Positions 16,476 to 19,535 of a stretch of DNA of 64,000 nt are shown here, piece after piece. Below the pieces are notes generated by a model that searched no databases, was not told where the DNA came from, and worked only from the letters and a program-made list of their open reading frames with translations. The position numbers and the translations under genes were made by a program. Source of the stretch: a virus (lineage: Duplodnaviria > Heunggongvirae > Uroviricota > Caudoviricetes); the IMG/VR virus record IMGVR_UViG_3300042544_001887. The stretch is one strand, 5' to 3'. The first letter of the stretch is position 1. Each line of letters begins with the position of its first letter.

Positions 16476-19400
16476 ATGAGATTAAGAAACCTTTTTGAAG
16501 TACAAGTGCAACCAGGTGAACGCAGAGGATTTTCGCTGCGGTTGAAGCGTCTTGAAGATTTGCAAGTAAAAATTGCAGAAATACAAAATACTATAAGCGA
16601 ACTTGGTAATGTTAGCGTTCCAGAAAACTTAAAAAAACAAATGGAAGATCTTATCGATGCTGCTAAAATAGAAAAAGAAAAAATCTATGCAGAAGTATCT
16701 GACGCAGAAGTAAAAAATCCAAGAATTCAAGGAATACCTGGATCTGTCATGAAGTTACTTAGAGGCATAGAAAAAAATGCTTCAACTATAATGAACGCAT
16801 ACAGAAAAACTGGAAAATATCTCTATAGAGGAATCAAATCTTCCGAAGACGCACTTTATGGAAAACCTTTTGACATCAGAAAAGCCAAGGATAGTAATGT
16901 AGATTTAAGTAATGCATTAAATCAATCCTTAGCAGACCAAGGATTTAATGCTAGAAGAGACAACACTACTTTTACTTCTGGTTCTTATAATCAGGCTAGT
17001 AATTACGGTACTGTGTATATAATATTTCCTAGAGATGGGTTCTCATTCCATTACAGTAAAAAGATAAGAGACCTTGTTTTAGATACCGGCAAGATTGATA
17101 TGTTACTGGATCCCGAAATAACAGGTTATATCGAAAGTGCTATACGTTCTAACTGGAGCAATCTCAAAAACTATTTTTCTTATAAATTTAGTGGAGATAA
17201 ATTCTTTACAGGTTATGAATATCAAAAAGATTTAGATGGGTTACAACGTGCAGTAGCAGACGGTGTGCTTCCACAAGAATTTGCAAAATATAAGACTTTT
17301 TATGATCTAGTTGATCCTGCAAAAGTTATAGCTAATTTTCAATACAATCAAACTGATCTCGACAGTGCTATAACTTCCGAACATGAAGTCATGATTACAG
17401 GACCGTATTATGCTGTTAAAACAGAGTCCTTTCAAGATTATATTGACAAATATATTAAAATGACAGCAAATGGTGAATTTGATGTCACTCCAGATAACAA
17501 AAAAGAAAAAACTACTTTAAATCAAAAAATACAATCTATAGTAGGCGGTTCCGCGCCTGAGTTTGCAATAGGAGATTGGGTGCAGCATAAGTACGAAGGA
17601 TTTAAAGGTGAAGTTGTTGACTATTACCATACCAATGACTTTGTTCAAATTAAAGATTATGCCGGAAAACTAAAATTAGTCAATAAGAAAAATATTGATA
17701 AAATTAAAACTCCTGAGATGCCCGACTACCAGCCCGGCGATAAAGTTTATCTAAGAACAAAAGACACAGAATGGGAATATTATAATAATAAAAAATACAA
17801 GGTAGTAGACTCTGATAAGTTTACCGTAACAGTTCAAAAAGGCAGTTACGACACCACAATTACATTACCTAAATTGTTAACCGAACCTGCTCCTAAATTT
17901 GATACCAAAGATCCAAGTGTAGGAGACACAGTTCATGTTACCAAGGGCGATTTTGAAAACATGTACGGAACTATTACATATGTTTCTAGTTACAGTAAAG
18001 ATATTGATGTTGACTTCGGAGACAGCGATTCGCACACTGTTCAAAAAGGATCTTACGAAGTTATTGATCCTGCAACAAAACCTGCAGATGCAAACTCTAT
18101 TGCATCAAAGTTTAAAGAAGGTGATTACGTTAGAATCTCTGACGACGGGTTTGATTACAGTGGTCTTGTAGCGGTAATTAATAAACCTGGTTTATCAAAA
18201 TCAAGAGTATATCCGTTCGGCGAAAAAAGTTATGCTTTAAGTATAAAAAATTCTAGATTAAAAGCTATTGATGAAGATGAATTTAAAAAACAATCGTTTA
18301 GCATAACAGATCAAGTAGTTGTATCTGGCGGCAAGCATGATGGAAAGAGTGGAAAACTTAATTATGTAAGCTTTGATGGAACTATGGAAATAGTTGTCAG
18401 TAGTGGTAACACCATAGAAGTACCCGGAAAATATGTTTTTAATCAAAACGTAAATGGTTCTCCTGAAAATAACGAGAATAAAGAAACAATTAAAAAAGGT
18501 GATTTTGTAAAAATCTCAGACGACTCGGACTTGTTCCCAGGTTCTGTAGCAAAAGTAGTTGTAAAGAATTCCGGCGAAAAATCTACAATATTAGTAAACA
18601 ACGACAACAATCTCGATTATATTATTGATACAAAATATCTAACCAAGATTGATGAAAATGAATTTAACAATAAAAAGCTGTCAACCGGCGACGAAGTCAA
18701 TGTCACAGACGGATATTATAAAGGAAAAACTGGAAAAATAAAATCGTTTGGGACTGATGGTCCTGTAAGAGTTGATATAACTTCGCCGTCCACAGGGGAT
18801 ACATTTACAATTAAGGTACTTCCACAATACTTGGAAAAAATAAATCAAAGCAGTGACGACTTAATTGATTTAATGGATCTTGAGTTTGAACCGATGGACG
18901 AGCCTACTGATTTTAAAAATAATGAAACTAAAAAATTTAAAGTCGGCGACAGCGTAAAAGTAATTAATGGTAAACACAAAGGAAAAACTGGAAAAATAAA
19001 TTACCTATATACGTATACAAAAGAAGCGTATGTTGACTTCGACGGTGAATATCACGACATTGAGTTAAAAGACTTAGAGTTAGACAAAGAAGAATCAAAA
19101 ACTGATAGCAATTTTAACAAAGACGAATTAAAAAAGCTAATCAGTCAAGGAAAAGAAAAAGGTTTTATAACCTATAATCAACTAAACGATGTAGTGCCTT
19201 CGGACAAAGTTACTTCTGAAGAAATTGAAGATATAATGGATATGTTAAATGAATTAGGAATCAATTTAGTTGATGCTGAAAAAGACTCGGCTCCATCAGG
19301 TGAAACTCCACAGGAATTACAAGCAAGAATAAACGATCCAGATACAAAAGCGTTCCTTAAACAAGCATTTGCAGATCCTGATGTAAAAGAACTAGTGAGT

Positions 19401-19535
19401 AATATAATCAAAAAGAAAATTATAACAACCGACGACATTGATAATATATCTGTTCTAGTAGGATATGACAAGTATTTGTTTGGCATAAAACCATATATCG
19501 AACTTAAAGGCGTTGTATACCAACCTACTACTTGA
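16476..19535 (+). CDS. large multi-KOW-repeat protein with C-terminal sigma70 region 1.1-like domain
   Basis: about 7 repeats of GDxVxVxxGxxKGKTGKI (KOW motif); C-terminal LKKLISQGKEKGFITYNQLNDVVPSDKVTSEEIEDIMDMLNELGINLV aligns with RpoD N-terminus; N-terminal region has weak R/STS/ExE ART-like residues. Confidence 0.6.
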   Translation: MRLRNLFEVQVQPGERRGFSLRLKRLEDLQVKIAEIQNTISELGNVSVPENLKKQMEDLIDAAKIEKEKIYAEVSDAEVKNPRIQGIPGSVMKLLRGIEKNASTIMNAYRKTGKYLYRGIKSSEDALYGKPFDIRKAKDSNVDLSNALNQSLADQGFNARRDNTTFTSGSYNQASNYGTVYIIFPRDGFSFHYSKKIRDLVLDTGKIDMLLDPEITGYIESAIRSNWSNLKNYFSYKFSGDKFFTGYEYQKDLDGLQRAVADGVLPQEFAKYKTFYDLVDPAKVIANFQYNQTDLDSAITSEHEVMITGPYYAVKTESFQDYIDKYIKMTANGEFDVTPDNKKEKTTLNQKIQSIVGGSAPEFAIGDWVQHKYEGFKGEVVDYYHTNDFVQIKDYAGKLKLVNKKNIDKIKTPEMPDYQPGDKVYLRTKDTEWEYYNNKKYKVVDSDKFTVTVQKGSYDTTITLPKLLTEPAPKFDTKDPSVGDTVHVTKGDFENMYGTITYVSSYSKDIDVDFGDSDSHTVQKGSYEVIDPATKPADANSIASKFKEGDYVRISDDGFDYSGLVAVINKPGLSKSRVYPFGEKSYALSIKNSRLKAIDEDEFKKQSFSITDQVVVSGGKHDGKSGKLNYVSFDGTMEIVVSSGNTIEVPGKYVFNQNVNGSPENNENKETIKKGDFVKISDDSDLFPGSVAKVVVKNSGEKSTILVNNDNNLDYIIDTKYLTKIDENEFNNKKLSTGDEVNVTDGYYKGKTGKIKSFGTDGPVRVDITSPSTGDTFTIKVLPQYLEKINQSSDDLIDLMDLEFEPMDEPTDFKNNETKKFKVGDSVKVINGKHKGKTGKINYLYTYTKEAYVDFDGEYHDIELKDLELDKEESKTDSNFNKDELKKLISQGKEKGFITYNQLNDVVPSDKVTSEEIEDIMDMLNELGINLVDAEKDSAPSGETPQELQARINDPDTKAFLKQAFADPDVKELVSNIIKKKIITTDDIDNISVLVGYDKYLFGIKPYIELKGVVYQPTT

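Follow-up and report, generated by a model that had tools for sequence, protein, structure and literature searches.

In a 64,000-nucleotide stretch of the virus record IMGVR_UViG_3300042544_001887 (Caudoviricetes), hereafter the window, the gene at positions 16476..19535 of the plus strand encodes a multidomain protein of 1019 amino acids (aa). Its N-terminal part carries a domain with the predicted fold of the ADP-ribosyltransferases (ARTs), its middle a series of KOW units, and its C-terminal part a homolog of region 1.1 of sigma-70 (sigma-1.1). Our preferred explanation, which we hold tentatively, is that the protein is a modular phage effector in which an ART-fold head is addressed to RNA polymerase (RNAP) by the KOW units and sigma-1.1. 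The identities of the domains, the conserved gene block in which the gene stands, and the fusion of a partner kinase to the same polypeptide in a relative are established. An earlier reading of the DNA made without database searches (the sequence-only reading) had likewise proposed an RNAP-targeted effector; the sigma-1.1 and KOW modules and the ART-like head beside an ADP-ribosylhydrolase gene bear this out in part, while binding to RNAP or NusE is still something that we infer. The open reading frame (ORF) described in that reading agrees with the ORF list and is complete. Its protein is identical across NCBI, JGI and Logan assemblies (longest contig 330 kb), and because the same protein appears on several independent contigs, the ORF is not an assembly artefact. 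About 20 family clusters share the same domain architecture.

The match to sigma-70 lies at aa 881-941 (19116..19298, plus strand), where the Pfam model Sigma70_r1_1 (PF03979) scores 72.9 bits (E=2e-20) against a gathering score of 22.5, and where phmmer against PDB sequences aligns the RpoD N-termini of many chains with E values between about 1e-10 and 1e-11. PF03979 is matched by each of the 12 family members tested, and Sigma70_r1_1 recurs at the C-terminus of distant proteins that share the N-terminal domain (in 11 of the 50 long members, P0057 and P0061 among them). The equivalents of sigma-70 G52, I53 and D61 are identical in the phage domain, and the G-I pair is nearly invariant across the family. 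In sigma-70 itself, the I53A substitution impairs promoter complex formation, G52A and D61A make the complexes less stable, and in the free RNAP holoenzyme the downstream DNA-binding cleft is occupied by region 1.1 (PMC7641759).

The sequence-only reading had assigned this segment to regions 1.1 and 1.2 at about 50% identity. Region 1.1 stands, but region 1.2 is rejected for lack of support, as the alignment of RpoD with a profile built from 12 members of the family is confined to residues ~5-61 and the similarity ends at about residue 61. The identity measured by tblastn is also lower, 42% over 57 residues (aa 882-938) with enterobacterial RpoD. Sigma regions 2 and 4 were not found in Pfam and NCBIfam searches, which matched only Sigma70_r1_1 and an RpoD model at positions ~12-89. 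The protein has the region 1.1 that, among sigma factors, is a feature of group 1 only, yet lacks regions 1.2, 2, 3 and 4. Judged from these alignments, the phage domain is the folded 1.1 domain alone, apparently a captured copy of region 1.1 of a host sigma-70, and it stands at the C-terminal end of a non-sigma protein. A scan of genome contigs with the sigma-1.1 segment gave no confirmed relative from which to name the closest bacterial rpoD. Whereas sigma-70 continues from region 1.1 into an acidic linker and region 1.2, the phage protein ends in an unrelated conserved tail of 75 aa (aa 945-1019; 19308..19532, plus strand; pattern TPxEL…PxxK…PYxELKGV), in which P, K, L and the closing PY..KGV do not vary across the family. 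The tail has no match in PDB or Pfam, and a homology search using it alone returned nothing. Derivation of the tail from sigma region 3 ('TPEEL..R...P..K') was considered and ruled out by hhalign against sigma-70 (2.4% probability over 17 columns).

Upstream of sigma-1.1, aa 361-792 (17556..18851, plus strand) hold some seven small beta-rich units in an array, followed by a further unit at aa 820-873 (18933..19094, plus strand) that is the fourth canonical KOW unit of the protein. The Pfam KOW model (PF00467) matches five stretches with 50.5 bits against a threshold of 22.3, and KOW4_SPT5 is also above its threshold, at 56 bits. A hidden Markov model (HMM) built from the clear repeats recovered the canonical units only, at aa 479-535, 607-660, 734-792 and 820-873; the last of these contains the best Pfam KOW stretch (aa 823-842) and is matched by the NusG_myco and L24 models as well. 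Within the array, the canonical units alternate with small beta-rich units that are not KOW. Four segments of similar size start with GDxV, near aa 366, 421, 549 and 673. The first is a marginal KOW match (14.5 bits) and the other three have no significant match to Pfam KOW or SH3 models, leaving the assignment of these segments to KOW or SH3 unsupported by Pfam. The presence of KOW repeats was correctly recognised in the sequence-only reading, but its count of about seven comes down to four canonical units and one marginal one.

The protein shares its four canonical KOW motifs with NusG, Spt5 and L24, but differs from them in having the units as beads interleaved with non-KOW units and in lacking an NGN domain, the RNAP-binding part of NusG. 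Pfam and NCBIfam searches found no NGN domain, and no family member has one. The NusG models match by their KOW portion only, and all NusG and L24 scores are under the curated cutoffs. A complete NusG C-terminal domain (CTD) does stand directly before sigma-1.1 in a sister subfamily (P0007-P0017): aa 867-921 of P0009 align to positions 110-164 of the 172 in TIGR00922 (E=9e-12), and the stretches with both NusG-CTD and sigma-1.1 are aa 867-991 of P0009 and aa 1037-1174 of P0007. The contact with NusE or Rho that had been suggested for the KOW repeats has a basis at the level of the family in this sister subfamily, although the query protein itself lacks the NusG-type barrel. Because NGN is absent, a NusG-like antitermination role is without specific support. 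Between the array and the last KOW unit is a conserved acidic linker, DDLIDLMDLEFEPMDEPTDF (aa 794-813; 18855..18914, plus strand; family consensus DDDLIDLxDxDFEPxDEP), with a net charge of -7 over aa 790-820, which might be a short linear interaction motif.

The other end of the protein begins with a leader (MRLRNLFE..PGERRGFSL) and a helical hairpin (together aa 1-84; 16476..16727, plus strand), both also found in many stand-alone members of the family. Leader residues M1, L3, L6, E8, P13, G14, R16 and S20 are invariant in the family, and the AlphaFold model places the hairpin helices at aa 24-44 and 50-80. The domain that follows (aa 85-340; 16728..17495, plus strand; hereafter the N-domain) belongs to an unannotated family and quite probably has the ART fold, judging from an AlphaFold2 model with a pLDDT (predicted local distance difference test score) of 90.5. 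The modelled strand order is that of the ART core, running from beta1 (which ends in LYRG) through a helix, beta2 (TFTS), a second helix, beta3, a 'PRDG' segment and beta4 to a helical insert of ~100 aa (aa 204-301), beta5 starting from E304 (EVMI) and beta6, and we counted the split beta-sheet of the ART fold as present. The conserved arginine of beta1, the Ser/Thr of the beta2 FTS and the glutamate at the start of beta5 lie on the strands expected for an ART, and the modelled fold probably includes an NAD+ site. R118-G119, R135, R161 and N163 are invariant, and E304 is at least nearly so. Residue 168 is S or T throughout, and F-x-[ST] is kept where the full STS is not. R135, R161 and N163 are particular to this family, and set it apart from the BC2332-like proteins (PDB 2aua; SCOP d.166.1.6) and the minimal ARTs. 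The helical insert between beta4 and beta5 is a further difference from the BC2332-like proteins, AcrF11, Arr and DarT; shorter homologs in the family lack most of it.

These residues bear on the Y-R-G/FTSGS/EHE pattern that the sequence-only reading had seen as faintly ART-like. R118-G119, S/T168 and E304 of that pattern are kept, but its first glutamate, E302, is not conserved. The proposed likeness to T4 Alt and Mod is not supported at the sequence level, as no relationship to either was found by Pfam, tblastn or profile searches. On the evidence of such searches, the N-domain is not detectably a member of the Alt/Mod group or of any other described ART family. tblastn with the N-domain region against 50,697 phage records found only hypothetical proteins of the Agrobacterium jumbo phage Atu_ph07.

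The family is large. A profile search that covered 1.84 billion representatives gave 5,416 proteins at E<=1e-3, of which 3,091 reach E<=1e-10, and most are stand-alone proteins of 200-400 aa. KOW4_SPT5 matches 25 of the 50 long members, KOW 23, and a Zeta_toxin/AAA_33 kinase one, besides those with Sigma70_r1_1 given above. P0035 (2645 aa) has eight stretches in a single chain that match the N-domain, and Atu_ph07 has, around its N-domain match, a tandem array of about ten genes for proteins of 250-265 aa (L012; MF403008.1 38890-51561), all annotated as 'hypothetical protein', five of which were detected by tblastn. Such expansion of paralogs is typical of fast-evolving host-interaction effectors.

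The tandem arrays also suggest an arms race, as might be expected if the acidic sigma-1.1 (net charge -8) and the acidic linker were DNA mimics or decoys against defence proteins or against factors that recognise sigma-1.1, with the ART domain modifying a defence protein in the manner of AcrF11. We regard this as highly improbable: no defence-related domain or context was found, the combination of sigma-1.1 with NusG-CTD and KOW points specifically to the transcription and translation machinery, and the functional residues of sigma-1.1 are kept, which mere mimicry of charge would not need.

The gene stands in a conserved block with two others. Upstream and divergently transcribed is a P-loop kinase of 243 aa (15715..16446, minus strand; Zeta_toxin 56 bits and AAA_33 36 bits in Pfam), whose profile matches Zeta toxin, the RNA-repair kinase Pnkp1, nucleoside monophosphate kinases and T4 PNK in the PDB about equally. 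The sequence-only reading had noted neither this kinase nor the setting of NAD salvage and RNA repair described below. Directly downstream, as that reading had stated, is an ADP-ribosylglycohydrolase gene (19569..20462, plus strand; PF03747, 246 bits). Its product is of the DraG/Tri1 type, with a phmmer E value of 1e-81 to Tri1 (6dre) against ~1e-15 to ARH3. Tri1 and DraG remove ADP-ribose from arginine in proteins, and the N-terminal extension of Tri1 occludes the Tre1 active site (PMC8120803); the alignment of the phage hydrolase begins at Tri1 residue 70, hence this extension is missing. The block of kinase, N-domain gene and ADP-ribosylglycohydrolase is also found at homologs of 43-51% identity (L004, L006) and beside P0020 (L008), which has 28-30% identity and no sigma-1.1. 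The head-to-head arrangement of kinase and N-domain gene is kept in L004, L006, L008 and L009, in the last of these with a stand-alone N-domain gene (P0031), and the adjacency of the hydrolase is kept in L004, L006 and L008. In P0057 the kinase (aa 22-175), the N-domain (aa 321-568), KOW units and sigma-1.1 (aa 978-1029) form a single polypeptide, a fusion which shows that kinase and N-domain are functional partners. The kinase that partners P0031 (L009 5156-6304, minus strand) has a C-terminal extension of ~150 aa with …GYIYVEPDFRSQGLASGIV…, which, as a sequence, looks like a GNAT acetyltransferase motif.

The order of an ART-fold gene followed by a DraG/Tri1-type hydrolase gene, with the adjacency kept in relatives, is shared with DraT/DraG and Tre1/Tri1. 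The setting here, however, is a phage and not a bacterial toxin-immunity pair, the hydrolase differs from Tri1 in the missing extension, and the third partner, the P-loop kinase, has no counterpart in either system.

Under the explanation that we prefer, the ART-fold domain would use NAD+ to modify, most likely, a host macromolecule, and about 500 residues of small KOW and other beta-rich domains would tether it to sigma-1.1. From the position of region 1.1 in the holoenzyme we infer that the phage sigma-1.1 would dock in the downstream DNA-binding cleft of RNAP, or compete for that site, which would keep the enzyme domain on the transcription machinery; further contacts, with NusE/S10, Rho or RNA, may come from the KOW units. 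The presence of a DraG/Tri1-type arginine hydrolase in the block suggests that the reaction is a reversible or self-protected ADP-ribosylation of arginine, with RNAP or its associated proteins as the presumed substrates. NAD+ could be supplied by two proteins encoded further along the window, a NadM-like cytidylyl/adenylyltransferase-Nudix (NMNAT-Nudix) protein (28037-29113) and the nicotinamide phosphoribosyltransferase NadV (29464-30918).

Several observations weigh against this explanation. The position of the first glutamate of the ExE motif, 302, is variable in the family (E, G, A, N, K or Q), and the STS motif is degenerate. Pfam searches at E<=10 gave no ART family for the N-domain, Foldseek against the PDB returned nothing below E = 1.3 for its model, and two N-domain HMMs (A4, from 16 sequences, and A8, from 85 sequences) searched against PDB sequences and Pfam gave noise or coiled-coil matches only. 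An isolated sigma-1.1 that binds RNAP in trans is a supposition on our part, and this explanation assigns no role to the partner kinase. P0019-P0021 lack sigma-1.1 yet retain the kinase and hydrolase block, so that sigma-1.1 is an accessory targeting module and not the core function. Finally, the genes of RNA repair around the block, discussed below, would suit an RNA substrate.

The degenerate ExE and STS motifs and the weak similarity of the fold to ARTs would suit a non-catalytic transcription factor, its N-domain being a binding module or a degenerate pseudo-enzyme. In that case sigma-1.1 would plug the RNAP channel or displace the host region 1.1, and the KOW units would engage S10, Rho or nascent RNA, giving either shut-off of the host RNAP or a scaffold for antitermination. 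The strong sigma-1.1 and KOW homologies fit such a role, and T7 Gp2, which acts on sigma-1.1 in the cleft, can shut off RNAP (PMC7641759). We nevertheless doubt it. The N-domain is the most conserved part of the protein, and R118, R135, R161, N163 and E304 are invariant across thousands of homologs; that such polar residues never vary points to an active site. In a purely steric model, the conserved pairing with a kinase and an ADP-ribosylhydrolase, gene fusion included, has no role. The protein also has no NGN domain, and the relatives without sigma-1.1 keep everything else.

The genes around the block form an island of RNA repair and NAD+ salvage that includes, besides NadV and the NadM-like protein, a PNKP-type HAD phosphatase, HAD_SAK_2, a second AAA_33 kinase, the T4-type RNA ligase Rnl1 and, just after this ligase, a cREC (cyclic-phosphate processing receiver) protein (23080-23442). 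The loci of relatives (L004, L006, L008) add RtcB, an Rnl2-like ligase and a Macro-domain gene. In phages, NAD+-dependent RNA-repair neighbourhoods have the same accessory set around KptA or a sirtuin; cREC is predicted to process ADP-ribose cyclic phosphate, and ADP-ribosylglycohydrolase domains, which are rare in phages, probably act on macromolecular adducts (PMC9503650). This raises the possibility that the ART-fold domain acts on RNA ends, transferring ADP-ribose from NAD+ to a terminal phosphate by chemistry like that of Tpt1/KptA. The kinase would make the phosphate, the hydrolase, Macro and cREC proteins would process the products in a tRNA/RNA-repair pathway or a cycle of RNA-end capping, and the KOW units and sigma-1.1 would place the enzyme at ribosomes or RNAP. 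No KptA (PTS_2-RNA) gene is listed within +/-10 kb in the relatives' loci L004, L006 and L008, the three invariant arginines R118, R135 and R161 would suit phosphate binding, and Zeta toxin is not the only likeness of the kinase, which also resembles Pnkp1 and T4 PNK. Moreover, Tpt1 and some PARPs ADP-ribosylate 5'-phosphorylated RNA ends, which ARH3 reverses (PMC8883491).

We consider this action on RNA ends unlikely, since the hydrolase is far closer to the DraG/Tri1 type, which acts on protein arginine, than to ARH3. The catalytic tetrad of Tpt1/KptA is Arg-His-Arg-Arg, and Pfam gives no sequence signal of a PTS_2-RNA domain in the phage protein. The tandem paralogs of Atu_ph07 and P0035 typify diversifying effectors and not housekeeping repair, stand-alone N-domain members (L010, L011) lie outside RNA-repair contexts, and sigma-1.1 has no known part in RNA repair.

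A further and more novel reading is that the three-gene block is a phosphate-primed, reversible ADP-ribosylation machine held on RNAP. At the transcription complex, the kinase would add a phosphate to a substrate, for instance a residue of a protein or the 5' end of an RNA that is nascent or has been cleaved. The ART-fold domain, which has three invariant arginines, would cover this phosphate with an ADP-ribose cap in a Tpt1-like manner, and the hydrolase would take the cap off. Sigma-1.1, acting as a plug, and the KOW array would keep the reaction within the RNAP cleft or close to it. We judge this quite improbable.

The start sites of the kinase gene and the gene studied here lie back-to-back on a near-palindromic spacer of 29 bp (16447..16475), ACTATATTTAT-GTTTGAA-ATAAATATAAT, of the form TATTTAT ... 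ATAAATA, so that ATAAATA-N4-ATG occurs on both strands. Neither of the two ATGs is preceded by a Shine-Dalgarno sequence. The geometry NATAAATA-N4/5-ATG is present on both strands in the spacers of L004 (9971-10000), L008 (1695-1719) and L009 (6305-6338), and is kept down to 28% protein identity. The window contains six ATAAATA-N4-ATG sites against 0.43 expected, a number reached in none of 100 shuffles: 4328-4341(+), 16444-16457(-), 16465-16478(+), 35696-35709(-), 48346-48359(+) and 51313-51326(+). The motif marks gene starts that have no Shine-Dalgarno sequence. As such sequences precede 29 of the 50 ORFs in the window, the host evidently uses them. The motif resembles the T4 late-promoter box, TATAAATA, and by this analogy it may be a T4-late-like promoter box that gives a leaderless mRNA starting at or next to the ATG. 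Scans around the gene for sigma-70-type promoters and terminators showed no enrichment over shuffles. A strong hairpin, AAAGCCTGG-TTAAACT-CCAGGCTTT, with T-runs (15706-15730), lies at the junction between the plus-strand genes upstream and the 3' end of the kinase gene on the minus strand, and may be a bidirectional terminator.

The invariant L-x-E of the leader (L6-x-E8) likewise resembles the prohead-protease/capsid-targeting site of T4 that Alt uses. The two resemblances together raise the possibility of late synthesis, packaging and injection, as with Alt, and if so, the hydrolase could protect the producing cell.

The virus is a jumbo phage, uncultured and myovirus-like, that carries some T4-like genes, namely rIIA, rIIB and Rnl1, and the window also encodes a giant tail-fibre-like protein. 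Apart from tRNAs, the window has no nucleotide relatives among the 50,697 phage records. ARAGORN finds 33 tRNA genes, two of which have irregular anticodon loops (37737-37812 and 42850-42923, with a 2-nt 'gc' and a 4-nt 'tatg' given as anticodons); a tRNA-Ser with anticodon ACT is at 34251-34340. An ORF of 128 aa (33380-33766) has a match to the C-terminal domain of ribosomal protein L7/L12 (PF00542; 37.4 bits, cutoff 25.9), and would, by this match, be a phage-encoded fragment of a ribosomal protein. A fatty-acid desaturase homolog (PF00487, 59.6 bits) is encoded at 41377-42138. GC content peaks at 0.505 at 6001-8000, against ~0.38-0.41 in the flanks, and this peak holds two of the five minus-strand ORFs of at least 120 aa (6402-6875 and 7031-7564).

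To our knowledge, the reprogramming of host transcription by ADP-ribosyltransferases of phages has essentially been a matter of T4, with its Alt, ModA and ModB. Both T4 and the present phage have rIIA, rIIB and Rnl1, and the protein resembles the T4 enzymes in being a phage protein with a predicted ART fold and the host transcription or translation machinery as its probable target. It differs from them in having no sequence similarity and no conserved first glutamate in ExE, in its KOW array and sigma-1.1, which would serve as targeting modules and which the T4 enzymes lack, and in the pairing of its gene with genes for a kinase and an ADP-ribosylhydrolase. In T4, Alt and ModA act on the alpha subunit of RNAP by ADP-ribosylation, and S1 and EF-Tu are modified by ModB (PMC8120803). 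A phage ART directed at the host gene-expression machinery is already known in this sense, while the parts and their combination here are new. In the searchable literature, in which coverage of subscription journals is thin, searches on sigma-1.1, on KOW with region 1.1 in jumbo phages and on phage KOW/NusG-like proteins brought up no earlier description of the N-domain family, of the full architecture or of sigma-1.1 outside sigma factors.

These findings suggest a different and widespread solution to the problem that T4 solves with Alt and Mod, in which an unannotated ART-fold head, with 5,416 cluster representatives and no Pfam model, is addressed by captured domains of host factors. If the phage sigma-1.1 occupies the RNAP cleft in trans, it would target or inhibit RNAP in a way that is new, and could serve as a useful probe of region 1.1 function. 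The block of kinase, transferase and hydrolase points to a regulated or multi-step NAD+-dependent modification; should the phosphate-primed reading be true, it would bring the first exaptation of sigma-1.1 by a protein other than a sigma factor, and would give an ART family of over 5,000 clusters its founding assignment of function. For the N-domain family as a whole, the analysis offers a name and a testable hypothesis for thousands of 'hypothetical' jumbo-phage genes, including the array of Atu_ph07.

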